A stretch of 63,367 bases of DNA, filler included, from Collodictyon triciliatum (GCA_043381765.1; 7 parts of 7 records of this genome joined end to end with filler, not necessarily neighbours in it), one strand, 5' to 3'; positions 10,018-62,305 are shown, numbered from the whole stretch's first letter. Notes: a model not told the origin generated them from the sequence alone. Program-made: numbers and translations.

Positions 10018-10117
10018 NNNNNNNNNNNNNNNNNNNNNNNNNNNNNNNNNNNNNNNNNNNNTTAATTAATTAANNNNNNNNNNNNNNNNNNNNNNNNNNN
10101 NNNNNNNNNNNNNNNNN
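10018..10117. other. Artificial contig spacer N44-TTAATTAATTAA-N44 (also 20131-20230, 35955-36054, 46060-46159, 56163-56262, 62206-62305)
   Basis: The same 100-bp structure occurs six times; TTAATTAATTAA places stops in all six frames. Confidence 0.97.
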
Positions 10118-10527: not shown

Positions 10528-16513
<5,986 letters not shown>

Positions 16514-17069: not shown

Positions 17070-19150
17070 TCACTGCGCGCCACTTGGGTCATCTCCAAGG
17101 TCAGGATTTTCGGACGCGTCAAACTCGCCTTCAAACTCACCGTCAATTTCGTCCCCAACGAAATCCTCACCTTCAATGCCATCAAGATCTGCAGCCAACT
17201 CTCCAAATCCGTCGGCATCGGGCTGTGGCAGCTGTTCGGCTCCGGTTTCATTCTCTTCATACTGCACACCATCCTCTTCCTGGAAATCGTCCTCGCCTTC
17301 CTGCTCATCGTAGCCTTGCTCGTCTCCTTCATACTGCTGGTTATCCTCACCATATTGCTGGTTGCCTTCCTCGTTGTATTGGTGTTCGGCATCTGCATAG
17401 TCGCCATAGTCCACTTCTTGCATGTCCCCGTCCTCGGGGTTCAGGGCCCTCTCAGCTTCATAGGACCTGTCCTTTTTGCTTTCAGACGGCTCGGCTAGTT
17501 GGGTGTCAGGCTCTTTGCGTTTGGTGCTTGCATTCATGATATCCTTTGATGGATCGATTGTCGTGGTTGATTTCGGTGCTGTTGTATGTGCGGCGCTTGA
17601 GAGGGGTAGCGGGCTCGACTTGATTTGGGTTATGACACAACGCATCCCACTTGCTGATTTAACAGGTGCCACGGCATCGGTACTAGCACCGGCACTGGAT
17701 ATTTGCTGGGCGGCCTTGTGTTGCTGTTGCAAGGAGCTGATTAATGTATCCTCGTTGACAGAGGTCATGGTAACCTTCAATGTCGACTCCTGAGCTTTGT
17801 TACCCTGTGCTGGTTTTTTGACAGCATTATAGTTATCCCCAAGCAGCTCCTGCAGCGACCTCACACGAAGAGGCTCCTGTTTGGTGGAGTCTGAATCCGT
17901 GGAGCCAGGAAGCATTGTTTTCTTCTGTGACTGATTTTGTTGTGTATGTTGTGTTTGTTGCATTTGTAGGTTATTAGGCTTTGGTGGGTTGGGCTTTCTG
18001 GACTGGTTTCTTTGAGCCTCAGCTGGGAACACAGCTACACCGCCTTCTAGAAGAGGCCCCTGGTTTCTAGATGGAGCTCTTTTATCTTGTTGACTGTGAG
18101 GCTGCAACATGTTGACAGGGGTATTTTGCTGGAACATCGAAAGAATGGCTGGATTCATGCCGTTGGCGGCCAAAAACTGCATAAGTGCCATCTGTGCAGC
18201 CGGATGCCCTTGGTTATAACGGCCTAGGAGTGCAGGGTTTATCATTTGTCCCTGCGAGCCATACGGAACCCCTGTGTGTGGGATGATGGGCCCTTGTCCT
18301 CCCATATACGGGTTGTACTTGTGTATCGGTCGCGATGGGTTCTTTGCCGGCCTCGGTGCTGGGGTGCTTGCTGTGGTAGCAGAAGCCGGAGTGTTTTGGG
18401 GATTGACAGGAGTATTTTTTTTCGGGGCGGTCGTAGATGACTGCACGGAGTCTACTTGACTGGTTGGAGCGCTTGCCTTTTGTGTGGCTGTGCTGAGATT
18501 TGCAGGGGCCTCAGGGTTGCCTGCTGGCCTTGCATTGCTGCTGACAGACATTGCACTGTCGATGCTGAGGACGGATGTTGATGGGGACTCTGTCACGGTG
18601 GGTGCGGTTGTTGGTTTCGGGGAATTCGGATCGAACTTCCGGTGGCTGAGGCTGTGGTCGAATGGGCAGCTGCGGCCACGCTGGCATTGTCCCTTGATGA
18701 AGAACTTGCATGGAACCGAGCTTGTGTTCACAGCAGCCTAGAAGGAGGCGTATCGACTTGTGAGTGCTTATGATCGAGGGCGACACTCAAATAGATAAAT
18801 CTCTAGGTATCTGTATAATGCATGGATTGTGACTAGGAATGCGTCTATGTACGTTCTCAGGCTGTGAGTGGCGGAAGGGACAGTCCTGTTTGAGGCATCG
18901 CGAGCTACGGAAGAATATGCACTCGCTGGGATTAGCTTTGGCAGACTCACTGTGTCTAAACTCGCAATCACTTCCCTATGGTAATTTTTTTTCAATCAAA
19001 TAAAGAATAAAGAATAATAATAATAATAATAATAAAAATTAGAATAAAGAGAGTATGTAGGGGATGGGCAAGAATAGAACAAGTTTATGAAATGTAAACC
19101 TTGACACAGTCGCTGGCCATAAAATCTTTGCAGTCGATGTTCTTGTTCAT
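17070..19150 (-). CDS. ZC3H11: Triple CCCH zinc-finger protein, ZC3H11A-like, with low-complexity middle and acidic tail
   Basis: Three spliced exons give MNKNIDCKDFMASDCVK|GSDCEFRHSESAKANPSECIFFRSSRCLKQDCPFRHSQPEN|AAVNTSSVPCKFFIKGQCQRGRSCPFDH, matching the ZC3H11 N-terminal finger pattern. ATG at 19150. Confidence 0.8.
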
Positions 19151-20130: not shown

Positions 20131-20230
20131 NNNNNNNNNNNNNNNNNNNNNNNNNNNNNNNNNNNNNNNNNNNNTTAATTAATTAANNNNNNNNNNNNNN
20201 NNNNNNNNNNNNNNNNNNNNNNNNNNNNNN

Positions 20231-21968: not shown

Positions 21969-22819
21969 CTATTTTTCCACTTCGCTTGCGAAGGCATCTT
22001 CAGACTGGGTTTGGCGACGATTGTGCAAAGAGTACTCAAGCACATGTGCAGATGCTGGTTCGATGCGTTTGTAGTAGGCTGCAATTGTCTCTCGAAGCTC
22101 GAAGCGATGCGTGCGGTAGAATGCAAGTGCGCGTTCGTTGGGTGTGTGGACGTGAAGGTAAACGCAGCTCAGGCTTGAATCGGCGGCGGCCTCTCGAAGA
22201 AGCCGAGTCAGCAGAAGAGTGCCTGGGCGAATGGTATTCAAGGTGTGATTGCAACCGTCGTTCGCAAAAAGGCGATATAGGTTTGGTGAGGCGTATGGTA
22301 TATGATTGCAGGGATGGAAGGTGTAAAAGACCGTAGCTTTTATCATTTACCTTGATAAGAAAATATCAAAATATTCGAAGTGATAATAATGAAGAAATAG
22401 AATGTCAAAAAAAAAAAGAAAAAAACAATAATAACCATATCGCATAAATATAAAAATAATGAAAATAAAAGAGAAAAGAAAGATATGATGGCATTAATAA
22501 TAGAGGGGAAAATAAAGGGAAATGAACTACGGAGAGTTTGGTGTCTCTAGAACCCACCATATCCCAAGCCCCGGAAAGGCGCCAGAACGCCGACCGTGTA
22601 TATGTATAGGCGGCCACTCGCCTCTGGAAAAACACCGGCTGTGATGCACCCGACAACGCAGCCCTCAATGCACCCGACAAGAGTCCAGACGCGTTTGTGT
22701 TCAAGAAGTCGCGAAAAGAACTTCTCTGTATAGCGGATCGGAAACACTGCGAGATGCAGAGAGCGGACTTGGTCCAGACTCGACGCTTCCAACGGCGCGA
22801 TCTCAAACGCTTGCGACAT
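21969..22819 (-). CDS. NAA50: GNAT N-terminal acetyltransferase, NAA50/San-like (2 exons)
   Basis: LHLAVFPIRY, RLYIYTVGVLAPFRGLGYG|TLLL, VYLHVHTPNERALAFY, YYKRIEPASAHVL; intron about 22223-22557. Confidence 0.88.
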
Positions 22820-23185
22820 GGCCTCTGAACAAACGCAGGCTGCAAGAACTTGTCTTTTCTATGAGTAGGTCCTCCCAACCAGCCACCCTGTTTGTTCGTC
22901 GTCTCGCGGATTTGTCCAAAGCTTTCTTCGCCTTGCCCTCCTTTGTCCTTTCCTTCTCGATCACAAATGAGTCAGACTGCAACGGCGAGTGTCACAGCGC
23001 TACACCTCTCGTTCCCTGTTTGGATTCGTTGGATGTGCTATCGGAGAATCGCATAATTGCCAGCGACTTAAAAAAATGGGGGTACACGAGGCTGCCACAA
23101 CCACACAACAAATATCTCGGTAGACTCAGGCAAATGTGAATTGGTGTTTTTCTTGGTAATCAACTTCACATGCGTCACAATCCCT

Positions 23186-23862
23186 TTGAGTGAGTGATTG
23201 AGTGAGTGAGTGATTGAGTGAGTGAGTGAGTGAGTGAGTGAGTGAGTGAGTGAGTGAGTGAGTGAGTGAGTGAGTGAGTGAGTGAGTGAGTGAGTGAGTG
23301 AGTGAGTGAGTGANNNNNNNNNNNNNNNNNNNNNNNNNNNNNNNNNNNNNNNNNNNNNNNNNNNNNNNNNNNNNNNNNNNNNNNNNNNNNNNNNNNNNNN
23401 NNNNNNNNNNNNNNNNNNNNNNNNNNNNNNNNNNNNNNNNNNNNNNNNNNNNNNNNNNNNNNNNNNNNNNNNNNNNNNNNNNNNNNNNNNNNNNNNNNNN
23501 NNNNNNNNNNNNNNNNNNNNNNNNNNNNNNNNNNNNNNNNNNNNNNNNNNNNNNNNNNNNNNNNNNNNNNNNNNNNNNNNNNNNNNNNNNNNNNNNNNNN
23601 NNNNNNNNNNNNNNNNNNNNNNNNNNNNNNNNNNNNNNNNNNNNNNNNNNNNNNNNNNNNNNNNNNNNNNNNNNNNNNNNNGTGAGTGAGTGAGTGAGTG
23701 AGTGAGTGAGTGAGTGAGTGAGTGAGTGAGTGAGTGAGTGAGTGAGTCAGTGAGAGAGAGAGAGTGAGTGAGTGAGTGAGTGAGTGAGTGAGTGAGTGAG
23801 TGAGTGAGTGAGTGAGTGAGTGAGTGAGTGAGTGAGTGAGTGAGACAGTGAGTGAGTGAGAG
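23186..23862. repeat. (TGAG)n microsatellite containing an internal N gap
   Basis: Direct reading; N run 23314-23681. Confidence 0.97.
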
Positions 23863-23902
23863 CGAGAGGGAATGAATGAGGTGGGTGATGAGGTGAGAAA
23901 TA

Positions 23903-26900
23903 TCAAAGTCCAGGTGTGCCTAGCAGATAACCAGCCAAGTATCGAATCATATCACGCAAGGTTCCGCACACAACCCCTTGCGCGTTGTCGCAGCGAGGCA
24001 ACACGATAGCTGCAAGATAATCGTCGATGGAGTAGAGATGGCGAACCGCACGCTCGGGAGTGGACAGAGCAGGCCACGCAACAATCAGGACCGAGCAGCG
24101 CAGAAGTGCATAGCTCCGCAGAAGATGGTTTTCGGCTCTATCGCGGACCCGGAGAGCGCGCCACCCAGAGCCGAGCGGATCAAAACCAGCCTCAGAAGGC
24201 AGCGAACCCGAGGCTCGAGTTGCCAGTGTGGCCAAGGTGGAAAGCGAGTACTGCACACGCTCCATAAACGCCACGTAAAGCGCACGCGAGATGCCCGAGT
24301 TGAGAGTCACCTGCGCAAACATAATCGGCTGCGACAACTCCGCAAGATTCTTGACAAGCTCCCAGCCCTCCTTCCAGAGCTCGGCTTCCTTGGGGTTAGA
24401 GCGGACAAGTGCAAACGAGGCACTCGCAGGAGCCGGGTACGCTTTGGTTAGCAGATCCGACACCCTGCTTTTGTAGACGGTGGCCACGTCGCTCTCGCCC
24501 GCGTGATCTGCTGCGATCTGCTCGGGTTTGCCTTTGCCCTTGCCGCTGCCCTGGCGTCTGTGATAGTTGAACGCGAGATGGTCTGGCCGGACGAAGGTGG
24601 CCAGCATAGCATAGGTTCCGTTACGGATGGACACCATTGCCTGGCGTTCAGAGACTGCGGCGAATGGGATGACGACGGCTTTTGGATCTGCGCGGATCAG
24701 GCGATGCACGAGGCGGTGGTTGACAGCCACTTCGACCGTTCCATCGCTGTGTCGGTAGAGTCCAACCACGTCGTTGCGCATAATGGATTGTGCAATCGGC
24801 AGGCACCGGTGTTGCCCATCGACAGACGGCCCGCAAATCAGGATGGAACCGCACGTGGGTTCTGACGGACGACGGGCAGATTCCAAAGCGCTGAACAGAG
24901 CTTGGTCAAAGACTTCAAACTTCTCCAAGTCCTTTGGTGTCGTTGTGGTCGCAGGTCTTTGGAGATACTGCGATATCAGGCTCTTTTGCTGCATGGCTGT
25001 GTCAATCAGACTGGCGTTCATCACACCAACCAGGATTCGCGGATTAGGTGCGCACTCCCCGATAACAAACTCAATGATGCATCCGTCTCTCAGGCTCTGG
25101 CTGCTTGCAAGAACGACCCATTCATCCTCTCCTGTGACTGATATGGACGCACTGGCGTTCCGGTCATTGATTACAACCGATCTGCTTGCGGAAGCGCTGC
25201 CCAGTGCCCGAAGCACACGAAGGCTCGGTGGAGAATGGGCTATGTGATGGATTACATGCATGAATGTGATTGTGTTGTCTTTATTTATTTATTTTGTCTA
25301 AAAAGAGCATGAAATATCGAACAGAGAATGAAGAGGATGATTCTCAAAATGAGAATGAGAAGTAGAAGGGCGCAAGGAATGAACATATGAATCAGATTTA
25401 TCTACCAGCGGCGATGTATTCAAACGACGATTCTTGAGGCACCTATTTTTTTTTTTTAAAAAAAAATTAGGGTGGTTTTCTGGTTACCAGTACGCTTCGT
25501 GAATGTATACTTCTGCTATTCACTTACAAAAATAGTCTGCGTATATGTTGGCTGTGCTGCTTCAGGCTTCATAGGGATACGCATCACTGCCCCATGTGGA
25601 AGAGGCGGAGGCGGCGGTGGTGGTGGTGGTGGAGGAGGAGGATGAGATGAAGGCGGGGACGGAGACGCAGGTGAAACGTCATAAGCAACGTCGGCGAAGT
25701 TATCGAAGCCATCGGATGCGCCTGACCAATCATCGGAGTCGGCCTCAGCTCTTTTGAACTTGAGCGCTGACCCGAGTGCCAGAGATGAGAGCATATCCGA
25801 CTGCATCCTGGGAGGCGACGAAGCTGCAGGGCCCCCGAAAGGTGGCGACGAAGGTGGAGGTGGAGCTGCTAACCCTCCAGAAGGCGGTGGCGGTGGTGAA
25901 ACAGATGATGATTTGTGAGGAGACAGGGCTGCAAAAGGATCAGGATGAATCACAGGAGGTGGCGAAGAAGGAGCAGATGATTTGTGGGGGGCTGCTTGGG
26001 AGAGTCTTGCTGGTGATGGAAGCGGCAGAGGCGATTGCGCCGGTGCTGCGGATTCGGAAAACATCGGCTTTGGTAGAGGCATCAATTGTGACGCCCCTGC
26101 ACTGCTTCCGATAACACCCAAGTTAGAGCCGAGGTCTTCAAAGGTGCTCTCGCTTTCAAGCGCCTCTTCTTTCTTTTTCTTCTTGGTTTTCTTCTTGTAT
26201 GAATAAGCTTCGGACGCTGCCTCCATCTTCAGAGTATATGTGGCATCATAGGACTCTTTCTCCACTCTGGATGGTGCTTTCCCGGCAGAAGACACTATCG
26301 AAGTGGGCAAAGGATGGTCGCCCCATGAATCATGTGTCTCCATCTGGTATTTTCCGGAGATTGGTAGCAGCGCAGCGGGAGATGATGAAATAGACGATGA
26401 TTGTGGACGAGTGCCAGGAAGGCTTTGCTGGGGCGATGTACTCGAAGGTGCGTTGAGGGTTCCTCCGACACTAGGAGGTGGTGGGCGAATATTGGCCATC
26501 TCTTGTTCCTGGCTCTCGCTTCGGCGCAATCGTTGGGATATCGGAGATGATGCAGGAGCTGGCCTATAGTCGATGATAACGTGTAACAGTTTGAATAAAT
26601 ACAAATCGAAATAGTGGGGGGAATCAAGGGGAAATAGATACAATAATCCAAAAGTAGGGTGAAGGTTTTAGATGCTGATGTCCAATTAATATATTGTATT
26701 CGGCTATATGGTTGTATTCATTTAGATGGGTATATCCGAAAATACTGCTTTTGAGTATGTTTTGATATTCGTTTACCGTGATGATGAGGAAAAGAAGGAT
26801 GGTGGTTTCCATGAACTTTTCTTCGCCTTTTTTCTGAAATTCTGTGCTGTATCACTTAACATATCTGCTTGCATTTCCAACGCATCCAGCATTTCAGATC

Positions 26901-29900
26901 GATCTAGAACTTTTTCTACATTCTCCTCTGTTGAAGAAGACGAAGAATCGATTCAGATTTTTGCATAAGGATATGCCACTAGAGATCACTAAATATGCCA
27001 AACACAGAGGAGGTAAATCATGAATGCTGTTTGTTATCTTTTAAAAGAAAATCGTACTCATGATGCTTTTTACATCCTCGATATCACTTTGCAGGGAGCT
27101 GAATGTGAGTATAAGGGTAAAAATAAAATAATGAAGTGAAGTGAAATGAAGTGATATGAATCAAATGATATATGCAGTTAAATTATTTTTGATTATCATC
27201 AATACAGTCACATGGGAGTAGAATGTTCGACTTTCATTTGAGAATTATGTGTTTTGGGAGATGGGATTGAAAAGCATCAGAAGTAACGGTAAAAAAAATA
27301 AATAGCGAACCTAATACTTTCCTCCTTAAGCAATCCTTCATGCTGCTTGCGCTCCGGCAATACGACTTTCTGCTCAACTTCTTCCATGATATCATCTTCG
27401 TCTTGCAAACGAAGATACTCACTTTGAGATTGTAGCCGGCTTGATATCACTATATCCTCTAAGGGCTCCATATAATCATACATCGGCTCTGTTTGATTTG
27501 AAAAATTGATTTTTTTACCACCTTTATTTGCGGTTTGGAAAACTGATAAATATATAAATTTAAAATTCACGGCCCACAGCGCACAAGAAAACAACTTATA
27601 AGATTGTATTATATGATATAGGTAATGTTGTGCACTTTTCTGCGTGTTTGGATAAAACTTTTTTTTTCCTTGTGTATCGCATCGTAAAGTCATGACCTTG
27701 CATAGATGACTAAAGTTTACTTACTTGTGGATGGAAGTCTTGTTATTGGAAGCCTCTTGTACTTGAAAAAATCCAAAGAGTCTTTCGAGAATTTTTCTGC
27801 GGTAGCAATCAGCTCGCTTTCACACACACGGAGCCTTTCATCATCTTTTTTAGAACCTTAAAGGAAAAAAACCAATAATGGTGTATTTTAGCAGCTAAAT
27901 AAATGCATACCTCTCTCAACTCGATAGTAGGGATTTCCGGAGGAAATTATGAAAGCATGATATCAAGGAACTGCTCATGATCAGTTGAGACATACTTGCT
28001 TCAGCAGAGAGCTCTTCCATCTTCTCGTCATCCGAAAATTGTTGAACAAGGTTATGAGCCTCTTCCTGAATTATCGAGTTCCAGCTAAAGGGCGGGTAGC
28101 TAGATATCTGCAAGACATCGTCTAATGTCATGGTTTCCATACACATACAAAAAAAAATTAATTAATCCATGCGATGCACCAAAACATCAAGAACAGGGGT
28201 CATCTTGAATGAATTCGATGTATTACATATTTCCATGATTTTCTTGTTTTGATTTTCAATTGCAGTGATAAAATGTGCATGAAGCTAGTACCGTGGAAAT
28301 GTGCTGAAGCTATGTGCTTCATTTTATCCAGAAAAAGAGTGGATAGTTTCGGCTCGTATTCCTTCCCTGAATCACACATAAGAGTTGTATATTGAAGTTT
28401 GTTTTTTTATAAAAAAAAAATTCATATTAAAAGAATACAAATTCGTGCGTTAGTCTAATCACAATAGAGCTCATATAGAATAAATAACAATTCAAACAAC
28501 AAAGCAAGTAAGAGATAGTTTGGATGCAAGAAGGAGAAAAAAAAGACAGAAATACCTGTAGCAACAAAGAACATGCAAAAGTCATCGTTACTCTGGAAGA
28601 GCTTTCCCCATGGATGGAACTCACTTTCACATGCAAATTTGGCCTTATTTGAAGTTGTCCCAACAAAACTTCGGGCATCATATTCTACTTGCTTCACATC
28701 GTAACAATAAGGATTACGATAGCCAAACAGTTGTGCCTAAATAGATATTCATTACACGCCATGTCACAATTTCTGTCTGTTAACTCTGCGATGAAAGATT
28801 GGATCATCTCCGTACAATATAATGCAAGTATTTTTTTAAAAAAGAAAAAAGGTATATGTTAAAATTGTACTCTGTCGTTACTGCGGAATATACCCGTCCA
28901 TTTGATACGATCGATTTTCACTGTAACGCCAGGTTCGAGCTCGATCTTTTGTTCATTAATGTGTGGAAAAGAATATAAAATTAAAAAGTAAACGTTTAAA
29001 TCTAGGACCATACTGCAGTATGAGTGTTGTTTTCAATGATGCACTAAGACGAAAAATCCATCTCCCAAGGATTTTTTTCACTGTAAATTGAGACTTTTTT
29101 TTTTTAAAAAAAATGGTAGTCAAAAAGCAAACCTCGGTTGCTATGTCGATGGGTTTGAAAGCTACATTCAGAGCGAATATGGAGAAAGTCAATAATGCAA
29201 TCAGATCGAAAATAAGGAAGAGTATCACAATCGCTCTGGACAGCTCACTAAATGGTGGCATTATTGAATCCTTAGGAATTAAAATTGTAGTTGGAGGTGA
29301 TTTATTTACACATTTAGACAACAATTAATGAATAAAAGGGAATACATTTAAGTATACCTGTAATCACCAAAATGAGAGGACTCACTCGAGATGTAATAAA
29401 TACAACCAACTAAATCACCAACAACAAATCCACTGAAAGCAGTGATATATGCTTTGGCATAATGGACATGGCCAAGAATATCAATCTTTCATTCATAAAG
29501 TTAGCATGGAAGAATCACACAGAGCAAAGAATTGTTTTGAGTAGACTTGTATCAGGAAAAAAAAGTATGCATTTTTTATTTATGAAAGAGAGAGAAATAA
29601 CGGCATAAAAGATCTATCAGAAAAAAGTTGTCTTACTGGGTCTCCCTTTTTGTTCTCGATAATCATATTGCGTCGGATCTGATTTTATAAAATACATAAA
29701 AGAAGGAAGGTGATATGATTATCCTTGCTAACTTTTTTCCTTCAAAACTAAAATGATAACACAATTCGAAGTGAATCCTAAATGACACCATAGTTAAATT
29801 TTAAAATGCTGTTTGTTTTTTGTTTTTTGTTTTTTTTTTCCATCATTCACCACGGGGAAAAAATGGTCAAGGACGGCACCAACCTGCTCAATCAAATCGA

Positions 29901-32710
29901 TACCGTGGATGACTACTTTCTTTTTCAGCATCACAGAGTAGAATATGACCAGATAGAAAATATTCACGAGACAATAGCCAATTGTCACACCAAGCGATAG
30001 GATAAGTTGCTGATTCAGACTCACATATAAGAGTGTCCTTTTTCGAGAATGGAAAGAAAAAATGATACAATTATACCGAAAGACGGCCAAAAAGCAATAA
30101 AAGTGACATTATAATAAGGTTCAAAAGGATTTTCCTGAATATCTTGGCTGTATTACATTAAATATCGTGTCTTAATTACCAAATACTGTATGCAACAAAT
30201 CCTTGCAAAGTAGTCAGCAGTACAAAACATGCCAAAGCAAAGTGTCTGCTTTCTTCCTTTTGAGCTGTTTGAACCACCTTTTTGAGGAGATTCTCCTAAA
30301 AAAAAAAACCAAAAATCGGGCCTTCATCTTGATGCTTGTTCGTCAAATACCCTGATTTCTTCAACTTCATGCTATTACTTCAAGTATATTAGCTATAAAA
30401 AAAAAGTAACCAAAAACCTTTTTCAGTACGATAGGACGAGTTGGTGTTAAGACAAGAAATGGCCCAAGGGATGTTGTCACAGCCCCAAAAACAAGACTGG
30501 CCTTCATTAATGCCTCCAGTTCATCCTGGGTAATAAACAAACAGAAACGTTGATGAGGAATGAATAAACAACCTGACAGATTTACATGTAAACAGCGTAC
30601 CGAGGCAGTGAAGTTGACCAGCACAGACACAATGTTGTATGCAAGAAACCAAGCAGAAAACAGGAACGTGGATGCCAGGCCTTTTCTCAGCAAAGCCAAC
30701 ACGCAGAGAAGATAATATACATATTGAGTTAGAAAGTTATGGCCATACTGAATAGTTGAGTTATCTTCTATTTTCTATTTCGTTTCATTCGTTTCATTCG
30801 TTTCATTCGTTTCATTCGTTTCATTTGTTTCATTTGTTTCATTTGTTTCATTTGTTTCATTCGTTTCATTCGTTTCATTCGTTTCATTCGTTTCATTCGT
30901 TATATTTTATGTTTTTAGTTTATGTTTTTAGTTTATGTTTTTAGTTTTTTTATTCTATGTTTGATGCTTTTTTATTTTTTTATGTTTGTTTATCTTATGT
31001 TTTATTTATATGTTTTTTTATTTTATGTTTTTTTTATTTTATGTTTTTTTTTATTTTATGTTTTTTTTATTTTATGTTTTTTTTATTTTATGTTTTTTTA
31101 TTTTATGTTTTTTGTTTCTGGAAGGGACTTGATGGACATGATCAAGTCCTTCGATGACATGCGGCGGGTGGAGGGGATTTAAGCCCTTCAAAGAAAAAAC
31201 CATGGCAACGTAATGAGGTATAGAAATGAGAGTGACCTTTGGGGTATGTTTTCGAGAGCTCGAAAAGCGTATTTATATATTTCATGGCCGAAGACGCGGT
31301 GGCTGCCACACCGACGAGAGCAGACGTCACCGCAAGATTGGCACGCATCAGAGTCTCGGTGTCCATGGCAATGACAAGAGATCAGGCTTCGATCCGCCTC
31401 TGTTCAGCCTACAAACTAGAGGAAAGGAAGGAGTTTATCAATGCAGAGATTCGGAGCCTGCGAGCACCTTGCCTACTTCCTGGCGGTGACACGTGGTTTT
31501 TGTGATTTGGGTCGAGTTGGAAAACGCAGCAGAGTAGTGATAAAATTAGCTGCTTGACATCTAGAGGCAACACGCAGTGGAAAAGGAAAAAAAGAAAAAA
31601 AAAGTCTCCAATTGCGCGATGATATCCCATCGGGGAGTGGCCTCATATTCATGGATGAGACTAGACGGAGTATACCAATCGAAAGATTGGAAAACCGGGT
31701 CCGCTGGTATCCAAGGCCTCAGCACTTTTTTCACAGAGGTCGGGTAGTGGTGAAGCACATGGAATGGTTGATGTGCAGTTTGTCAGTCAAGAGGACTTTG
31801 CTGGTGATTTCACATAGAAAGTCGGGCTTGGCCGTACCCACCAAAGTACGTGGAAAGTCTAGATTGTCTGGTGTCCTTTGTTTGTTTGTTAGTTTGTTTG
31901 CTTGGTGTTGTTTTCTCTCAAAGCGGGGAATCTATGTAGAACATCGTTTGAAAAATCATTATTCGGCATATTCCTTCCAGTAATCCATCATTTTGTCATT
32001 ATATACAAGAAACAAAGTATTACGTTTGTTTTATGGAAAGTTTGCTCCTCTTTAAAAGTCCTTCAGAAAAACAATGAATAAATGTATGTTATTCCTTTTA
32101 CTGCATAGTACGCTCCCAAAAAAATAACAAAAATTACATAATACCAGTCACAACCTACTACTATTGCGCCCAGCTATGAAAACACCAAGTGATATACATT
32201 CTGATGATGTTTCACTTCGACAAAGAAAAATAAACCCTTGAGAGTAGCATTTTCCGAAAAAAAAAAAAAAACAGAAAAACAGAAGAAACAGAAAAAATGC
32301 TCATTCAAGGATGAAAAATAGCGCAATGAAATACGATAATTATTCCATAAACTCATTAAAGAAAATAGTATTTGTACCGAAAAAAAGAGAAAAATAAAAT
32401 GAATGATATTATATTTATTTAACAGAATTCTGAAAATTGTTATTTTCAGGCATCAAACTATTTGGAGGCCAGCACCACTTTTTAACTCGAATTCATTTAT
32501 TTTGAAAATAAGTTTGTGATATTTTTATAGACTGAATTTCATTTATCTTCCTATGAGCTATGTCCAGTTGCTAGGCTTCATCAACTATCAGAATAGTTGT
32601 GGAGGTGAATTCACTCACCAGTTAACAAGGGTAAATTGATGGGCTTGGAAGAGCTCAGCTTATCGCCAACGATTCCATCCCGCCAGGAACAATAATGCCG
32701 AAGGCCTTGC
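23903..32710 (-). CDS. Large multi-exon membrane protein: (DCD-like?) - several TM segments - R-SNARE motif - Ser/Pro-rich linker - NHR/SPRY-like domain
   Basis: Chain of minus-strand GT-AG exons. Hydrophobic exons at 29.1-30.75 kb; SNARE exons 27098-27058 and 26927-26777; Pro-rich exon about 26566-25527; last exon about 25240-23903 with VVLASSQSL..IEFVI..ILVGV..NDVVGLYRHSDGTVEVAVN..VIPFAAV. Linkage of the 32-kb exons is uncertain. Confidence 0.65.
31200..31560 (+). mobile_element. Degenerate LINE APE-endonuclease fragment
   Basis: SIRLCSAYKLEERKEFINAEIRSLRAPCLLPGGD resembles the APE pattern 'xxNVYAP..ER..F...ILGGDFN'; interrupted by stops. Confidence 0.5.
31610..31875 (-). mobile_element. 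Degenerate LINE ORF2 post-RT fragment
   Basis: SRLSTYFGGYG resembles the 'P..xGGLG' motif downstream of L1/Tx1 RT; frameshifted. Confidence 0.4.
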
Positions 32711-33044: not shown

Positions 33045-34285
33045 TTCTAGATGACCTAGAAAAGGTAAACCACAAAAAATTGGAAGCGAGACACTTGCGA
33101 GACTTTGAGCAGATGTAGAAATGGTTCTTTGGACTAGGAAAGGAAAAAGAAAAGACCATGTATCCTTCCTGCACACCATCTGCGGACATGCAGCATTTAT
33201 TATCTCGTACCAATAAAAAGAACACCCACGACTTCTTCTCAAAGATGTGGTCAAGGCGAGACTATGATGCTGCTACTCTCGAGCTTATTACCACAAACTG
33301 CTCTAAGGTTTCATCCTCGCAAGCAGCCAGCATGATAGCACCAATAGATGCAGGCGAATTGTGTAAAGCGGTCAAGTCGCTGCACAACGGAAAGGCGCCA
33401 GGTTCAGATAGTCTGCCCAACGGAATATAATCTGCTTTCATTAATGAGGTCAAGGCATCCTTAGTGACTTTTCTGAATGGAATCATGTCTGGTGGCGACC
33501 TACCGCAAGGATTTACAGAGGCCACAGTGCGGCTGATACTAAAGAAAGGAAATTCGAGCAATCTCACAGATTGGCGGCCAATATCGCTGTTGAATAATGA
33601 CTAGAAGGTATTTACGACGCTACCCAGAAATCGCATATCACCCATCGCTGACAAACTCATATCCAAAGAGCAGATTGGCTTCATGAACGGAAGGAACATC
33701 GACACAAACATCTGGATTGTCAACAAAGAGTATATGGAATATCAAGTAAGTGGGACACCCCGCGCTATGATTTTCTACGACCTGGAGAAAGCATATGACT
33801 ATGTGAACCACGAAGCACTGGAAACCATCCTACGGAAAAGAGGCTTCTGTACCGGATTCACCAGCCTTATCAAGAAATTGCACGACAATGCAACAGCGAG
33901 GGTACTCACGGCACACGGACCTACGGATGCAATCCAAAGACAGAGCGGGGTGTATCAAGGCTGTGCACTTGCACCACTACTCTTCAACTTTGTCGCTGAC
34001 TGCCTTGCAAACCACTTCTGAAACGAAAACAAGGTACGCAACCAACTGCTACTTCAATATGCAGACGACTCGGCTTTCATCTTGCGGTCTCCCGAAGGCG
34101 CCACACTCGCCAACAAATGCATGCAAGAATACACACGAGCTGTCGGCGGGAAAATTAACTACGGCAAGACAGATAGAATTCTTTTTGGGTTTCAGGATGG
34201 ACTGATGTTTCCAGGAAACATTGTGTGGAAGCCACCGTCACATCCGCTCAAGTATCTTGGCATTATCTTCGACCTTCGGAAATAA
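33045..34285 (+). pseudogene. Non-LTR retrotransposon (L1/Tx1-type) reverse transcriptase, inactivated
   Basis: One frame carries KAPGSDSLP, WRPISLLNND*K, EQIGFMNGRNI, YDLEKAYDYVNH, GVYQGCALAPLLF, QYADD, KINYGKT and LKYLGI, with four internal stops (about 33116, 33428, 33602, 34019). Confidence 0.95.
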
Positions 34286-35218: not shown

Positions 35219-36189
35219 ATTTGCACTATTTTTCTATATCGCCTGCATAATTTCTATATTTTCAAACCACCCCCTCATCATAGAAAATCAGCACCAATAT
35301 ATTAATGTTTCAAATAGTTAACAACCTTGTCTATCAATCAGAACCAAGTTAAATAACTCTACTATTTCTTCAATTTATATATTTCTTCATAGCCCCTTCA
35401 ACTTAAATGATAAATCTGATGAGCTAGGCTTTGCCCTTGCAGGCTTGATAGTTTGAAAGTTTGAAAGTTTGAAAGTTTAAAATTCTGCTGTGGTCTTCAT
35501 AGAAATACACAGAAAACGCAGTGGAATCAAATCCACAGCTTGCGTGCGCGGTGGGGTGAATCCGTAGGGATGCGCGTTGCAGCTTTGATTGCCATTTAGA
35601 ATCACACATTCCCATATCAGCATCAAAATATATAAATTAGGCCAGAATGAAACTGGCCACCCAAAAAGCCTGGATATTGGAAATTGTCAAATGACTAGTT
35701 CTCTTTCTAAACTGAAGATAGGAGAAAATAGACTTTGCCTTTCGACTTCTGATGGCCATCACTTTTCATGTGCCATCATATTTTATTCAAGCTTAGTAAG
35801 TGCAATAAGCCCTCATTTGATTTAATGGCATACTTTTCAGCTGCATATGAGTCTTGAGTACGTTATCGTGATAGCCAAGATCATATTCTGCCTCTGCTGG
35901 CTGGCTGTCAACACTTGGATCTTCAAGACCCAGATCCGCCTCTGGAGGCTTCGGNNNNNNNNNNNNNNNNNNNNNNNNNNNNNNNNNNNNNNNNNNNNTT
36001 AATTAATTAANNNNNNNNNNNNNNNNNNNNNNNNNNNNNNNNNNNNNNNNNNNNGTTTGTTTGTTTGTTTGTTTGTTTGTTTGTTTGTTTGTTTGTTTGT
36101 TTGTTTGTTTGTTTGTTTGTTTGTTTTTTTGTTTGTTTTTTTGTTTGTTTTTTTTGTTTGTTTTTTTTGTTTGTTTGTTTTTATCTATG

Positions 36190-38701: not shown

Positions 38702-40110
38702 TCAAATTCCAATTTGCGCACTATCCCTTGCGGGCCTGGGTGGAATGTTGGCAGGTAAAGAATCTGGTATGGAGAGATATTTAATATCATGAAAACTGGT
38801 GCGCAATGAAATCAGAGTGAAGACATTGATTGTTTTGCTTAAAGAAATCTTCTCGGACATAATAGCTATATTAATTCATTAATCAGCATAACCTGGTTTT
38901 GTGTAAGATCCAATATTTCCAGGTTTTGGAGCAGATTTATTGCCTCCGGTACATTTGATATCTAATATTGTATCAATATTCTATTATAGACTCAAGTTTG
39001 ATAGAATATGTATCTCTGGATATAACTATACAAATAGTCGCGTATAATTACCTCGTTATTTGAAATATTCAGATGAACGATGGACCGAAGTGAAAAGATC
39101 ACATCAGGAATATCAATAAGCTAGCATATATACCCCCAATTAATCAATTTCGTACAAGCTTATCGATTTTTTTGAAAAAAAAAGCAACAAAGAGTGCTCA
39201 CCTTGTTGTTTTCAAGGCACAGGTATGTTAGATTCTGCATGAGTCCAATCCCCTGTGGAAGAGTTGTGAGTTTCATTCCATATAAACTCAAAGACTCATA
39301 TCTAGTTTGCAACACGGTTGGTGTCCAATCTGGCTCATTAATTGAATCGATCTGCACATTTCAATAGAATGGGTGAGTGTGCAAACTAGGGAATATATTA
39401 GAATGAAGTACCGTTTCGTAGAATTTCAAGCCTTGGATGTGGCGATAGTCCCTATCATCTTTATTGCCCCAGCATGGAAGGCTTGATATTCTGCGCGGTG
39501 CTCTCTTAATGCTTATTCTTCCACTCCCCACGATTACAAACGTATGCAAGTTCGTTAAGGCTGTGATTTGTGGCGGTAGCTGTTCTATCTGAAAACAAGA
39601 TAATTTTGTATCTTTATTAAGGATTTCGCTTAAGAATGTATTTTAATTCCTTATACAAACCGGATTATTCCACACCCCAAGCCGCCTGAGATATGTCAAG
39701 CTCGATATTTCTGGTGGGAGGGAGGATATCAAGTTATTGTAAACTGCAAGCGAAGAAAGAACTGTCAAGCACGATATTTCAGCAGGCAGAGACGAAATGA
39801 GGTTGTTTTCAGCGGTGAGATCGTTGAGGCATGCCAAGCATGATATTTCTGCTGGAAGAGATGTCAGTCGATTGGCACCGATACTGAGGCTTCTGAGTCC
39901 TGTTAAGCATGATATTTCTGCAGGAAACGACGATAGCTGGTTGTTCCAAAGGGTGAGTTGTATTAATTGGGTCAGTAGGGAGAGTCCTGGTGGTACATTC
40001 AGTAAATCTTCATACGAGAGGTCGAGTTTTGTTAGGTAAAACAGGTCTTCAATATCTTTGGCTTTTGCGTATTTACAAAGCCTCTTGAGGCGCAGAGGAT
40101 CAGCAGACAT
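38702..40110 (-). CDS. Cytoplasmic leucine-rich-repeat protein (multi-exon)
   Basis: Repeats LxxLxLxxNxLSSLPAEISCL; two later 69-nt single-LRR exons; no signal peptide or TM seen. The 3' end is uncertain. Confidence 0.85.
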
Positions 40111-40996
40111 TGTGGCCGGAGTGGAAGGCGAACTGTGCTTAGTTTGGTTGGGTGTAAGATGTCGTTTTGTGTGTATTCTACAGACAAGAAGCAATGGAGA
40201 GTAGTCGATAAAAGAAAAAATAGCATTTTTTTAAAAATATATATATAAAGGGTCGATCAAGTTGATTTTGCACACAGCGTCTTATTGCCAGGGAATCGTA
40301 GTTATCGAACTCGGTGGCTGTCAAACAAGAACATTGCAGAAGTATTTTTATTTTATGCATTTGTTCGAAGCCATCTGCGCTATATGCGCCACTATTTATT
40401 ATTTTTTATTTTTTTGCGAGGATGAGCCACTAAGAGAGCCTATGCAGATTATAGTCGATGCGTTCAAAAAGCCTCGTCCAGCGCCTCGCAGCCAATATCT
40501 GTTGCGGTGGACGCATCCCAACCCATGTTTATACTTTATATTGGCGTTATTGCCCTTCTTGAATACTTCTGAGCTGTCAAACAAGAGACTCTGGAAATAT
40601 GGGGTGAAAAAAAGACCTCTCATTTTTACAAACGACTCTATTGTTTAATAAACACCCGTACAAGCGTATGATTTAAACGACAAGATATTACCAAAATCAT
40701 GTGTTTTGCTCTGTTCTAGAAAGGATGAAAAGGCGGCACCCTTTTGTTCTATTTTGTTTGTTTGTTTGTTTGTTTGTTTGTTTGTTTGTTTGTTTGTTTG
40801 TTTGTTTGTTTGTTATTTTTTTTTAAAAAAAAAAAAGGAAATGAAAATATAAGGAAAAAGAAAAGGAAGAAAAGGAACTGCCGCCAGATATTTGTCGAAA
40901 TATTCACGTGTATCGCATGGTTTATTGGCTCCACTATGTGTGGATAGTATCTCTTTTTTTCTCTTTTTGAGACCGTGTTATAGATTGACAAAAGAA

Positions 40997-43900: not shown

Positions 43901-45754
43901 TATGTTTTTTTTGTATGTTTTTTTTGTATGTTTTTTTGTATGTTTTTTTTGTATGTTTTTTCAAAGCACTACCAGTATCCTCTCTGTCATTCAAAATCAT
44001 TTCCATTTGCTTCTCATTTAAGCTTTTATCATATCGATGAAAGAACGATGTTGTAGATATTCTTATTCCTTCATCGTTAAGTTTAAATACTGGTATTATA
44101 TCGATTCCCTTAAGCTTGGCAAACTACAGATAAGACACATAAGTAACAGCAAAAGAAAAACATAGATAAAATAGGAAACGAGCTCTTACATCGCACGACT
44201 TGTGAGTGCTGATTGTAGATGCTATGATACAAAAATTCATTGGTGATTTTGCTGGGAGCCACTCAAGGCCATGAACGAAAGGATATTCTTGTGAATCGAC
44301 AAGTTGATTCAAGCCGTCGAGGACTATGACGACCTGCTTGTTTCTTGCATAATAGATTGGATGTAAATCTGATGATTAAATGAATTAATTTTATTCACAT
44401 ATTTAAAATTTTACAATCTTTTAGAAAATTGTGGTGGGTTTATGGTTCGTATCTACTTAAAGTTGCATGATTTTGTTGTTTGAGCAGGTCATTCTACCCT
44501 TTTGATTCTGCCAATCTTAAAACTGTCCCAAGTCCATCTTTCAAGCAATCTTTTCCTAAAAGATAATATCATTATTTAACCATCTATAGTATTTGAAAAG
44601 TTGACTGCATATTCATACCTTCATCAGAGTCTTGCTTGAATGACATCATCCCAATTTGATACAAAGTCTTCATAACTCGGTCAAGGAGACTAATTTATTG
44701 AGCGCAATTTAATTGCTTCATATTTAAGAATGTTCTGTTTTATGAAAAAATTGCAGAAAGAACATACTTTTCAACAAAACTACTCAAGTTTGAACATCCG
44801 ACGAAATGGTAGATGACAACCAAATTTTTGTCCTTTTCGCGTTGGAGCTGTGAAATAAGTCCACTCAATATCGTTGATTTTCCCATACCAGGTTCCGCTG
44901 CAATCATTGTAATATTTGAGGAATCCGTAGTGAGTTGTTCTTTTGTTTTTTCAATAAGAAACTGTATAGTAGCTTCACGTCCTTCAAACCCCAGCATTCG
45001 GTTGCGCATGAATTGTTCATGGGCGATACTCTCATCATCGACACACTAATCGATGGAATTTAGGTTTGTTGTTTCATCATCGTCAATAACGAACTCTAAA
45101 TAAAATATTCATACGTAATTAGTCGGGAAATCCTCATTTATAGAATGAGTCAAATCTTCAACAATTCGCTCCACCAATTCTTTTGGTGTTCTATAGATTA
45201 GAATTTCGAATTTAATCCGAATTCGTCGTTTCAACTCGTTCTGATTTTGTCTCTATATCAAAAGAAAAATGTTACCCAAAACGAAATTGAAATATGTTAA
45301 ATCGCTGGGGTGATTGTTAAGAAAATATAATGAACAATTGAATACACTAACATCCTTTTCGCTCGCAGGACGGTATAGCTCCCGCTCTGCTTCACTATCT
45401 GCGATGTGTTTTATTGCAAAGTCTTCATCTCTTTCGTAGAAGAAAGCACGTCGAGCAGCAGGTTTGTCTTGTAATGTACCATGTATAATCTGTAGCATTT
45501 TTGGGATAATTTATAGGTTGGGTTAAAAAAAACACAGAAAAAGGGAAGGAGACGATTTTGAATCAGAGATTTATTTAAACCTCATAGTCTGTAACACTGA
45601 GACCTCTAATCTTTGTGAGATAGGGAAAGAGCAAATCCGTCTCTGGGTGCCATTCAGATGGGTTCTCAAAATTAGGGGACCATCCATATCGCGAGCCAAG
45701 TGTGCATAGAAAGTATGGGCATTCTTCAATCGCCCTCAAACAACTTATAACCAC
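40997..45754 (-). CDS. DUF4062-NACHT-TPR STAND NTPase (NPHP3/TEP1/NWD-like), 5' truncated
   Basis: CLRAIEECPYFLCTLGSRYGW..LSVTDYE (DUF4062), Walker A AEPGMGKST, IYHFVG, Walker B VVIVLDGLNQL, WLP, LKIILDELR, GLDENEL, 42-aa kinesin-light-chain-type TPRs. Ends ...KTCLLQ at stop 40997. Confidence 0.92.
43665..43962. repeat. (GTATGT + T-run)n minisatellite in NACHT-gene intron
   Basis: Direct reading. Confidence 0.95.
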
Positions 45755-46159
45755 CTGTATTAATGTTTTACCTTCGTTTAAATAAAAAAAATAGAATCAT
45801 TTAATTGCGATATTTTGGTTTGTTTCACTAAAATAATCGATGATTCGTAACAATTTTCCTTTCACTCTTAATAAAGCAACATCGTTAAAGATTTCATTTA
45901 CCAAACTTATATACTGGCATCATACTTTCTTTTGTTTATTTTATTTTTTATTTATTTATTATGTATTATGTATTATGTATTATGTATTATGTATTATGTA
46001 TTATGTATTATGTATTATGTATTATGTATTATGTATTATGTATTATGTATTATGTATTANNNNNNNNNNNNNNNNNNNNNNNNNNNNNNNNNNNNNNNNN
46101 NNNTTAATTAATTAANNNNNNNNNNNNNNNNNNNNNNNNNNNNNNNNNNNNNNNNNNNN

Positions 46160-48368: not shown

Positions 48369-49284
48369 AAAAAAAAGAATAAAAAAAAAAAAAAGAAATA
48401 AAACAGAATGGAAATTAACATATCAATTAAAATGTACTTTGTTGCCATAAATGACAAAACAGGTTAGACCCGACAAGAGAGATATCCATGAAGGGATACT
48501 TGTCAAAAGATTCTTGTGAATATCAAAGAGAACTAGATTATGTAGCCGTGATATCCCTGAAGGTAAAATCGTAAGCGTGTTTCCGTTAACTTGCAGGGTT
48601 TTAAGTTTTGTCAAACAGCTAATTCCCTCGGGCAAGTAAGCCAGTCGATTGTTGCCCGCGTTGAGATAAGTCAAAACGCTCAAACAGGATATTCCATCAG
48701 GTAACTGTGTCAAACTGTTTTTTATTGAGACATAGGAATGTCAGCTGACTTAAAATTGATATAGTGTCCGGCAAGGATGTGACCTTGTTATCTGAAACGG
48801 CGAGTATATTCATGCTTGATAAACAGGATACCTCTGGAGATATAGACGACAATCCATTTCCAAGCATGATTCCTTTTAGGTTTGTTAATTGCCATATCTC
48901 TGAGGGGATATGTGATACTTTATTTTTCAGACCAAATACAAAGTTCAGCTGTGGCAATTGAGAAATAGTGCTGGGAAGGATCGAGATATGGTTCGAGTTG
49001 AAATTAATTATGGAAAGGTTGCTCATAGAAAAGAGCTCAGGCGGCAGTTCTGTTAGTTCGTTATCCTGGACTGAAATGCAGGTGAGTCTGGTGAGCCTGG
49101 AGATCCAACCGGGTATACAATTGATTCGATTGCCTTGCAAAAATACTACCTCAAGGGCATTAAAAGACCCCAGGTTTTCAGGAAGGGCAGTTAGTTCTCT
49201 GCACTCGAGGTCTAAGCGTGTGCAAACACTCAAGGGCTGCTCGGCTGGTGTCCAAACTGGAGCGCAGTCTTCGACACAAGTCAT
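46478..49284 (-). CDS. LRR - TKL-type pseudokinase - SAM protein; apparent 1-nt frameshift at 48718-48723
   Basis: About 13 LRRs from ATG 49284; kinase fold VSIK, LRHQNI, HGRLKLENILL, KISDFG, YYPPE, DIYSLG; SAM-like tail QQLVQYL..IMDERISGSEFLQLTCEEL. Confidence 0.88.
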
Positions 49285-49396
49285 CTTTCTAACCAAGGCA
49301 ACGAAATAAAATGAAAAACAAAACAAAACAAAAGATAAATGCGATATATTTACATATATCACGACAATAAGCGCATGCACAAATATACTCTAGGCA

Positions 49397-55776: not shown

Positions 55777-56360
55777 TAGAGCTGCGTATTAACTAAAATA
55801 ATAGGGGTCTTACATCAGGCACGGTCAAGTAATAAGTACCCGATAATAGTAATGCTAGATAAATAAACTATTTTTTCTATTCCAGTAGTGCTTACATATC
55901 AATTCAACTTTAAAGAACATTGCTTTCGGCTATCCGCAGGACAAACCTGTTGCGACGATGTCTAAATTTGAATATGAAGTGCTAGGATTAGGAATATGAT
56001 TTAGCTATTCCACTATTCTTCTGATATGCAAACTGAAGAGGGTCATTTTCACCACAAGAGAAGGAAAGAAAGAAGGAAAGAAGGAAAGAAGGAAAGAAGG
56101 AAAGAAGGAAAGAAGGAAAGAAGGAAAGAAGGAAAGAAGGAAAGAAGGAAAGAAGGAAAGAANNNNNNNNNNNNNNNNNNNNNNNNNNNNNNNNNNNNNN
56201 NNNNNNTTAATTAATTAANNNNNNNNNNNNNNNNNNNNNNNNNNNNNNNNNNNNNNNNNNNNATAAAAAATAAAAAATAAAAAATAAAAAATAAAAAATA
56301 AAAAATAAAAAATAAAAAATAAAAAATAAAAAATAAAAAATAAAAAAAAAAAAAAAAAAA

Positions 56361-61326: not shown

Positions 61327-61496
61327 ATCTGCAATAGTCCACCCAGGTCATTCATAGGAGTATCACAAGCTTTCGTGCATACTCTCTGAGAGGAGTCACT
61401 NNNNNNNNNNNNNNNNNNNNNNNNNNNNNNNNNNNNNNNNNNNNNNNNNNNNNNNNNNNNNNNNNNNNNNNNNNNNNNNNNNNNNNNNNNNNNNNN

Positions 61497-61998: not shown

Positions 61999-62305
61999 GT
62001 AAGTCTATTGTTCAGGAGGTAAAATTTAACATCAGAGTCATGTAGATTAGATAAATATCATACTATCAGTGTTCCAATAGTTGTTTGTGTTTTGTGAATT
62101 TTCTTTTTCTTTTTCTTTTTCTTTTTCTTTTTCTTTTTCTTTTTCTTTTTCTTTTTCTTTTTCTTTTTCTTTTTCTTTTTCTTTTTCTTTTTCTTTTTCT
62201 TCCTTNNNNNNNNNNNNNNNNNNNNNNNNNNNNNNNNNNNNNNNNNNNNTTAATTAATTAANNNNNNNNNNNNNNNNNNNNNNNNNNNNNNNNNNNNNNN
62301 NNNNN

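Follow-up and report, generated by a model that had tools for sequence, protein, structure and literature searches.

The locus and its gene model

The DNA analysed here (the window) is a stretch of 63,367 nucleotides (nt) from Collodictyon triciliatum (GCA_043381765.1), made of seven parts of that genome joined end to end with filler; all positions are counted from its first letter. An earlier reading of this stretch, made from the sequence alone (the sequence-only reading), had drawn attention to an R-SNARE motif, split by an intron, inside what appeared to be a large polytopic membrane protein. The region from 31366 down to 23903 on the minus strand was modelled as one gene of 19 exons with a coding sequence of 4242 nt, specifying a protein of 1413 amino acids (aa) in which N-terminal transmembrane (TM) segments are followed by a predicted longin domain, the R-SNARE motif, a low-complexity linker, and a C-terminal domain. 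Exon limits were fixed from the local sequence and from tblastn with a protein of Diphylleia rotans (P0001), a 1500-aa open reading frame (ORF) on a Trinity transcript in EukProt. All 18 introns of the model are of the GT..AG kind and 75 to 556 nt long, and its single stop codon is terminal; the window is eukaryotic in character, with AT-rich GT..AG introns between exons richer in G+C. The exons, all on the minus strand, are as follows, with identities and similarities given against the Diphylleia protein.

Exon 1, 31237..31366: aa 1-44, weakly hydrophobic TM1; tblastn match to residues 1-44 at 68% identity
Exon 2, 30601..30680: aa 44-70, TM2
Exon 3, 30418..30525: aa 71-106, TM3 and the start of a basic cytosolic loop; the best conserved exon
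Exon 4, 30180..30295: aa 107-145, basic loop and TM4; tblastn 69% identity
Exon 5, 29884..30037: aa 145-196, TM5; tblastn 71% identity
Exon 6, 29637..29678: aa 197-210, part of the basic TM5-TM6 loop
Exon 7, 29358..29485: aa 211-253, TM6; tblastn 57% identity
Exon 8, 29133..29247: aa 253-291, TM7, with a score of 2.83 the strongest hydrophobic segment
Exon 9, 28871..28945: aa 292-316, start of the longin part (first strands), aligned to the folded part of the Diphylleia protein
Exon 10, 28556..28736: aa 317-377, longin core (strand, helix 1, three strands); tblastn 68% identity
Exon 11, 28292..28366: aa 377-402, longin helix 2
Exon 12, 27996..28121: aa 402-444, longin helix 3
Exon 13, 27725..27856: aa 444-488, linker from longin part to SNARE motif; weak tblastn match, E 8.3
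Exon 14, 27311..27488: aa 488-547, acidic linker, in phase with exon 15; low similarity
Exon 15, 27058..27098: aa 547-561, N-terminal layers of the R-SNARE motif
Exon 16, 26777..26927: aa 561-611, main part of the R-SNARE motif, including VLDR with its zero-layer Arg, and after it a basic stretch containing one Trp
Exon 17, 25528..26563: aa 611-956, low-complexity linker rich in Ser, Pro, and Ala; a GC-rich open frame of 383 codons
Exon 18, 25406..25442: aa 957-969, a proposed mini-exon of 37 nt, the least certain part of the model
Exon 19, 23903..25239: aa 969-1413 and the stop codon; C-terminal domain, first half beta-rich, second half helical

The start codon was placed at the ATG at 31366, which has an in-frame stop five codons upstream and coincides with the Diphylleia start; starts at Met 29011 or Met 29261 were rejected, as collinearity with the Diphylleia protein overrules both. 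An open frame antisense to exon 1 (31236-31505, plus strand) was likewise rejected as a gene, being the mirror of Ala-rich codons. The intron before exon 3 is only 75 nt long, in frame and free of stops, and lies within a longer open frame. Exon 18 was proposed because it provides the only in-phase join that we found between the GTAAGT donor at 25527 (phase 0) and the last open frame; no clear counterpart of it was found in the alignment to the Diphylleia protein. Two introns would truncate the protein if retained. At the exon 16 donor an in-frame TAA overlaps the GT (26775-26777, minus strand), and retention would end the protein at aa 611, just past the motif, leaving a form with only the seven TM segments, longin part, and SNARE motif; at the exon 17 donor an in-frame TAG lies four codons in (25516-25527, minus strand), and retention would end the protein at aa 959. 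Intron 1, the longest at 556 nt, contains a hexanucleotide microsatellite and a stretch with a G+C content near 11% (window positions 30750-31100), and the introns at 25455-25480, 28415-28440, 28830-28850, and 29095-29115 (minus strand) each hold a run of 8 to 10 T directly followed by a run of 7 to 13 A.

The modules belong to one gene

An exhaustive HMMER search of 1,835,955,588 representatives with the last exon as query returned the Diphylleia protein as its sole match (E 4.5e-27), with residues 6-437 of the exon product aligned to residues 1046-1491 of 1500. The cluster of this protein has seven members, all isoforms from one Trinity gene, of which three are full length (1500, 1511, and 1521 aa). 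The whole layout is thus contained in Diphylleia rotans within one ORF assembled from RNA reads, and in tblastn this ORF is collinear with the window exons from 31366 down to 23921. Identity between the window model and the Diphylleia protein varies along the length: 204/290 in the membrane part, 91/150 (61%) in the longin part, 27/99 in the linker that follows it, and 23/64 around the SNARE motif; the low-complexity linker is identical at 112/275 positions and the C-terminal domain at 132/428. Within the window, the gaps between modules (187 nt from TM7 to the longin part, 213 nt from the SNARE motif to the linker) are of ordinary intron size. Since a transcript-derived orthologue carries the whole layout in one ORF, the sequence evidence supports a model in which TM exons, R-SNARE motif, linker, and C-terminal domain make up a single gene. 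Word-based searches restricted to longer proteins found no match among 8000 candidates for the last exon and none among 36 for the SNARE exon.

An R-SNARE motif with the zero-layer arginine

The two exons proposed in the sequence-only reading to encode the motif (27098-27058 and 26927-26777) splice in phase, and joining them by coordinates gave exactly the peptide that had been quoted. Their borders are an acceptor cag followed by C at 27099/27098, a donor A followed by GTACGA after 27058, an acceptor caacag followed by AG before 26927, and a donor CG followed by GTAAAC after 26777. The assignment to the R-SNAREs held up against the Pfam Synaptobrevin profile (PF00957): the exon 16 frame alone (open frame 26776-26952) scored 36.1 bits against a cut-off of 26.4, with an E value of 5.9e-9, over profile positions 19-57 of 89. 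All three matches among PDB sequences at an E of ≤0.01 were R-SNAREs (VAMP4, 2nps_A, E 4.2e-4; Snc1, 3b5n_A and 9cru_J), and the Arg of VLDR aligned with the zero-layer Arg of VAMP4 2nps_A and Snc1 3b5n_A, in agreement with the sequence-only reading.

The Diphylleia protein has the motif in the corresponding position. At an E of ≤1 it matches no Pfam family but Synaptobrevin (46.4 bits, residues 547-599, profile positions 3-55 of 89), all 12 of the matches of its motif to PDB sequences at an E of ≤0.1 were R-SNAREs, with the VAMP7-type vacuolar SNARE Nyv1 as the best (1e-6), and its zero-layer Arg aligned with that of Nyv1 and VAMP4. Judged by these profile and sequence matches, the R-SNARE motif is genuine and well beyond chance, and it may still be able to join a four-helix bundle with Q-SNAREs.

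Seven hydrophobic segments and a predicted cytosolic tail

Topology was assessed with a Kyte-Doolittle scan (window 19, threshold 1.5) and a count of loop charges. Seven hydrophobic segments were found in the Diphylleia protein, and in the window model six were above the threshold, preceded by a weaker first one; they lie in exons 1 to 8. The sequence-only reading, too, had placed several TM exons upstream of the motif. The loops after TM1, TM3, and TM5 are basic (4 to 8 Lys plus Arg), and those after TM2, TM4, and TM6 have 0 to 1 such residues and more acidic ones. Basic loops mark the cytosolic side under the positive-inside rule, and because the loop charges alternate in this way, the pattern puts the N terminus outside or in the lumen and everything past TM7, including the motif, in the predicted cytosol; the tail remains cytosolic even if TM1 is not a true TM segment.

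No Pfam family was found in the membrane part, whether in the upstream frames, the Diphylleia protein, or the related Mantamonas proteins described below; the 22 upstream open frames gave only chance-level matches at an E of ≤10 (BCD 0.11, NrsF 0.24). Neighbours of the N-terminal 295 aa of the Diphylleia protein in the ESM Atlas were unnamed clusters (0.92) and THH1/TOM1/TOM3, GPR137_N, and PRRT3 (0.85-0.89), which we regard only as leads. THH1/TOM1/TOM3 and GPR137 proteins have seven TM segments of similar length, as in the Diphylleia protein, but unlike the window protein they have no longin, SNARE, or SPRY tail, and the corresponding profiles (PF06454 and PF27607) had no match at an E of ≤1 in P0001, P0007, or P0008-P0012.

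A predicted longin domain between TM7 and the motif

The region between TM7 and the SNARE motif was folded with AlphaFold2 (AF2) as the orthologous 156-aa part of the Diphylleia protein, using a five-row alignment (Diphylleia, Mantamonas, and three window exons). The best model had a predicted local distance difference test (pLDDT) score of 86.5 and a predicted template modelling score of 0.85, with the element order strand, strand, helix, three strands, and then helices. In a Foldseek comparison with the PDB, this model gave 12 matches at an E of ≤0.001. The best were the longin domains of VAMP7 (4b93_A, 2.3e-5) and Sec22b (1ifq_A, 2.7e-5; template modelling scores 0.70/0.84, root mean square deviation 2.1 Å over 129 columns); further down were more VAMP7 longin entries, Ykt6 (2.3e-3), and then zeta-COP and sigma-adaptins, which share the fold. 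The structure model therefore shows a longin fold for this domain, which starts near residue 292, behind the seven hydrophobic segments rather than at the N terminus.

A longin fold together with an R-SNARE motif makes what is, on this prediction, a complete longin R-SNARE cassette. The sequence-only reading had described TM exons, motif, linker, and C-terminal domain, and that architecture stands; it had overlooked the longin domain between membrane part and motif. With this domain upstream of the motif, the protein would be a re-anchored longin R-SNARE and not a bare motif set in a foreign protein.

The region after the motif

VAMPs were expected in the earlier reading to end in a TM anchor right after the motif, and none was found in the hydropathy scan: the window model has no hydrophobic segment past residue 277. 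The Pfam matches of both the window exon and the Diphylleia protein stop at profile positions 55-57 of 89; positions 60-89 of the Synaptobrevin profile we take to be the membrane anchor. A frameshifted TM segment after the motif was considered and rejected, as the other frame gives only about 11 hydrophobic residues. The motif is instead followed by a Lys-rich stretch with one Trp, poorly conserved in Diphylleia, and then by the disordered linker of about 350 aa, whose Ser/Pro-rich composition was borne out (19% Pro, 18% Ser, and 11% Ala). One Pro run lies at aa 834-838 and another, 13 residues long, at aa 919-931.

The C-terminal domain of about 440 aa (444) is present as described earlier, but its proposed identity as an NHR/SPRY-like domain did not hold to the same extent. 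No match to any Pfam family was found in the last exon of the window, and none to SPRY or Neuralized in the Diphylleia protein. The AF2 model was poor (pLDDT 49.4); its strands lie in residues 8-172, and its helices beyond residue 280 scored better. Foldseek with this poor model gave no match at an E of ≤0.001; generic helical bundles (14-3-3, translin, and the CAP N-terminal domain) appeared, none of them at that level, and were disregarded. Comparison of a C-terminal alignment profile with PDB sequences gave five matches with E values of 0.67 to 6.4, none of them meaningful. ESM Atlas neighbours of the domain include Neuralized and SPRY clusters (0.89), and a SPRY/NHR-like nature is accordingly only a lead. 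Binding of the actin or SH3 type, as suggested earlier for a protein of this architecture, is conceivable.

Relatives and the conserved core

In a word-based search with residues 1-620 of the Diphylleia protein, three of the 7999 sequences scored had an E of ≤0.001: the protein itself and two proteins of Mantamonas plastica. The Mantamonas protein P0010 is identical to the Diphylleia protein at 165 of 419 positions (39%, E 8e-92) over the seven TM segments and the longin part, with nothing significant beyond. The Mantamonas isoforms are of two kinds. In one, the region corresponding to the motif matches Synaptobrevin below the threshold (15.3 bits, E 0.018, profile positions 25-60); in the other, a Ras-like domain stands there (149.6 bits), with the halves of the profile in swapped order. 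In both kinds a Lys/Pro-rich linker comes next, and then a Pfam SPRY match (26.9-28.0 against a cut-off of 26.3). The Trinity isoforms of Mantamonas are visibly mosaic and share identical stretches, and they may be mosaics of paralogues. In three of the Mantamonas proteins (P0012, P0009, and P0011) a stretch matching Ras profile positions 43-160 precedes one matching positions 1-45 of the Roc profile, an order that suggests either circular permutation of a small GTPase or a Trinity contig of mosaic origin. Homology between the C-terminal domains of the window and Diphylleia proteins and those of Mantamonas could not be demonstrated (hhalign probability 1.7%; BLASTP E 1.7).

A scan of metagenome contigs, with at least 592 pattern matches, yielded one confirmed relative. 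This 2.1-kb genomic contig (L001:197-2110, plus strand) contains introns and codes for TM segments and a longin-like stretch, followed by a P-loop at the contig end; it is 45% identical to residues 55-184 of the Diphylleia protein, and its Roc and Ras matches are sub-threshold. By this similarity, the family may reach beyond the two named species of CRuMs. Because the relatives share only the seven TM segments and the longin part and differ in their tails, sequence comparison indicates that this part is the conserved core of the family and that the tail is modular.

Comparison with known systems

Longin R-SNAREs (VAMP7/Nyv1, Sec22b, and Ykt6) share with the window protein a longin fold followed by an R-SNARE motif with the zero-layer Arg. 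The window protein differs from them in having about 290 aa with seven TM segments before the longin part, an acidic linker of about 100 aa between longin part and motif, and about 800 aa after the motif, and in lacking a tail anchor, a lipidation signal, and a Pfam Longin match. Among the features of an R-SNARE, it thus has a score above the Pfam cut-off and the zero-layer Arg, and it does not have the tail anchor, which is typical of the group but not universal in it.

Tomosyn and amisyn also have an R-SNARE motif with no adjacent membrane anchor. They are, however, soluble proteins with the motif at the extreme C terminus and with WD40 propellers or a PH-like domain, whereas the window protein is an integral protein with seven predicted TM segments, a longin domain, and an internal motif (aa 547-600 of 1413); no WD40 match was found in the Diphylleia protein (Pfam, E of ≤1). 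The window protein is not a tomosyn or an amisyn. Chlamydial Inc proteins such as IncA are reported to have SNARE-like motifs and to interfere with fusion (PMC2265411). Their membrane anchor precedes a SNARE-like coiled coil in the cytosol, a geometry similar to that of the window protein; they are, by contrast, bacterial, have a bilobed hydrophobic hairpin in place of seven TM segments, are SNARE-like only, lack a longin domain, and are unrelated in sequence.

The architecture had not been recognised in the sequence-only reading, and the literature searched, to the extent of its available text, holds no description of a polytopic or seven-pass R-SNARE. The accessible portion of the Mantamonas genome paper, which surveys SNAREs, names only NPSN, Syp7, and syntaxin 17 (PMC10492846). 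The parts are known, and we found no precedent in these sources for the architecture or for the reversed anchoring.

Proposed function and alternative explanations

We consider it probable (about 0.6) that this protein is a longin R-SNARE of the VAMP7/Sec22 type that has, in place of the tail anchor, a polytopic anchor at its N terminus and a long extension in the cytosol, and that serves as a non-fusogenic, membrane-resident regulator. SNAREs zip up along the motif from its N-terminal end to its C-terminal one, in the direction of the anchors, and the force reaches the bilayer via a short linker and TM segment. In the window protein, the anchor lies on the other side of the motif, about 260 residues before its N-terminal end. 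The motif could enter a bundle with Q-SNAREs, yet this bundle could not force bilayers together: because the membrane-distal end of the motif is the anchored side, zippering would not pull two bilayers towards each other, and the protein would therefore be a membrane-resident SNARE that does not drive fusion. R-SNARE-motif proteins that have no TM segment, such as tomosyn and amisyn, are competitors of VAMPs, and the complexes that they form are non-fusogenic; by analogy, the most probable role of the window protein is that of a regulator or decoy and not that of a fusogen, and it might hold Q-SNAREs in similar dead-end complexes or dock partner membranes. In VAMP7 and Ykt6, the longin domain folds back onto the SNARE motif and also binds adaptors, and the predicted domain here could be a fold-back or adaptor-binding regulator of the same sort, with the Pro-rich linker and C-terminal domain as possible recruitment sites for other factors.

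Several points weigh against this interpretation. Its transcript support comes from another species, Diphylleia rotans, and from a de novo Trinity assembly, and the placement of exon 18, like the precise borders of exons 13 and 14, was set by phase and weak similarity only. The topology comes from simple hydropathy and a charge count rather than a trained predictor, and TM1 is weak (1.57 in the Diphylleia protein, below the 1.5 threshold in the window model). The longin domain was predicted on the Diphylleia sequence with an alignment of five rows, and two of the five models were confident (pLDDT 86.5, 82.7, 59.8, 53.5, and 42.6); no Pfam Longin match was found in the exon frames or in the Diphylleia protein, and the longin profile gave only chance-level matches among PDB sequences (MntR and NifU-like, E 0.54 and 0.86). 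The motif is sub-threshold in Mantamonas or replaced there by a GTPase, so the SNARE motif is not the conserved core of the family, which weakens SNARE pairing as the central job of that family. The non-fusogenic role itself is drawn from geometry and from the comparison with tomosyn and amisyn.

The same conservation pattern could mean that the core of seven TM segments and longin domain acts on an endolysosomal membrane as the receptor or scaffold of small GTPases or adaptors, with the motif an inherited or accessory coiled coil of little or no SNARE function. Only this core is clearly conserved between Diphylleia and Mantamonas, a Ras-like GTPase takes the place of the motif in some Mantamonas forms, and the same core is followed by a P-loop in the metagenome relative; the Atlas neighbours THH1/TOM1/TOM3 and GPR137_N, as leads, point the same way, and TOM1 is reported to be a seven-pass protein that co-purified with the small GTPase ARL8 (PMC3234234). 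However, in both the window and the Diphylleia protein the motif has its full length and passes the Pfam cut-off, the zero-layer Arg has been kept despite an identity of only 23/64 around the motif, which points to selection on SNARE features, the best structural matches of the longin domain are SNARE longins and not domains of the roadblock or DENN type, and the Atlas scores are below the level that would count as more than a lead. We regard a GTPase or adaptor scaffold as unlikely, though it is the strongest of the alternatives. Somewhat less likely again is that the protein belongs to a lineage-specific class of seven-pass proteins, hybrids of receptor and effector, in which the conserved core of TM segments and longin domain would sense a lumenal or extracellular cue and gate a built-in trafficking effector; the effector would be the R-SNARE motif, released or clamped by the longin domain, in the diphylleid form, and a small GTPase in the Mantamonas and environmental forms. 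If this were true, signal perception and control of SNARE pairing would be combined in one polypeptide.

That the protein is a working fusogenic R-SNARE, with force transmitted in another way, such as by lipid binding or lipidation of the basic Trp stretch or by membrane association of the C-terminal domain, we consider doubtful. The motif is canonical in length and layers, the Lys-rich stretch with a Trp presumably resembles the juxtamembrane region of tail-anchored VAMPs, and lipid-anchored SNAREs such as Ykt6 and SNAP-25 exist; but the window model has no hydrophobic segment after the motif, where about 800 aa follow instead, and the basic stretch is poorly conserved in Diphylleia. Two weak C-terminal segments in the Diphylleia protein hold charged residues, and the matching region of the window protein is predicted to be a helix bundle; the end of the protein has no Cys and so no CaaX-type signal. 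It is very improbable that two or three neighbouring genes (for the seven TM segments, the longin SNARE, and the C-terminal domain) were merged by our model and by read-through or chimeric Trinity contigs. In-frame stops at the exon 16 donor and four codons past exon 17, Met codons close to where exon 17 starts and ahead of exon 19, and the mosaic look of the Mantamonas isoforms would fit such a merger. Against it, the intermodule gaps are intron-sized and leave no room for a terminator and promoter, all junctions are in phase, and the same order occurs in three full-length Diphylleia ORFs, with the core order also in Mantamonas and in the genomic contig; a separate longin SNARE gene would, moreover, have neither a start codon near the longin part nor a membrane anchor. 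A re-anchored, non-fusogenic longin R-SNARE remains our preferred reading.

Other features of the window

Outside the gene described above, the window contains the following features.

23690-23900: (TCAC)n-type repeat directly past the stop codon of the gene, running into a 368-base run of N at 23314-23681
21972-22858, minus strand: GNAT acetyltransferase in two exons (Acetyltransf_1, 30.5 and 21.6 bits), just downstream of the gene and on the same strand
33605-34282, plus strand: reverse transcriptase fragments (RVT_1, 51 and 23 bits) in two adjacent frames, probably a decayed retroelement
50194-55788, minus strand: a single open frame of 1865 codons with several WD40 beta-propellers (e.g., THOC3-type, 498 bits) and then about 10 ephrin-receptor-like repeats (249.5 bits), an unusually long intron-free exon for this window
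8387-9890, minus strand: exon fragment of a P-type ATPase
11797-12021, plus strand: exon fragment of a DENN domain protein
17073-18737, minus strand: exon fragment of a CCCH zinc-finger protein
39646-40230, minus strand, and 48700-49389, minus strand: exon fragments of two leucine-rich repeat (LRR) proteins
45578-45796, minus strand: exon fragment of a DUF4062 protein

Paired runs of 44 N occur at 10018-10117, 20131-20230, 35955-36054, 46060-46159, 56163-56262, and 62206-62305, with a spacing of about 10.1 kb and larger gaps of about 15.7 kb and 6.0 kb around further runs of N at 23314-23681 and 61401-61496. These recurrent runs look like masking or scaffolding marks and not like biology.

Implications

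For SNAREs to drive fusion, a membrane anchor has to follow directly behind the C-terminal end of the motif, and a full longin R-SNARE cassette that is anchored from its N-terminal side via seven helices would be a ready-made test of that rule. The window protein is a candidate for an inhibitory or docking SNARE resident in a membrane, and its layout indicates that a cassette of longin domain and SNARE motif can be transferred as a unit to a polytopic scaffold. A protein of this kind would be overlooked or misclassified in automated surveys designed around SNAREs that are short and tail-anchored. CRuMs are a deep and little-studied group of eukaryotes, and the presence of the same scaffold with a GTPase in relatives of the window protein hints at a modular, receptor-like family in this group.

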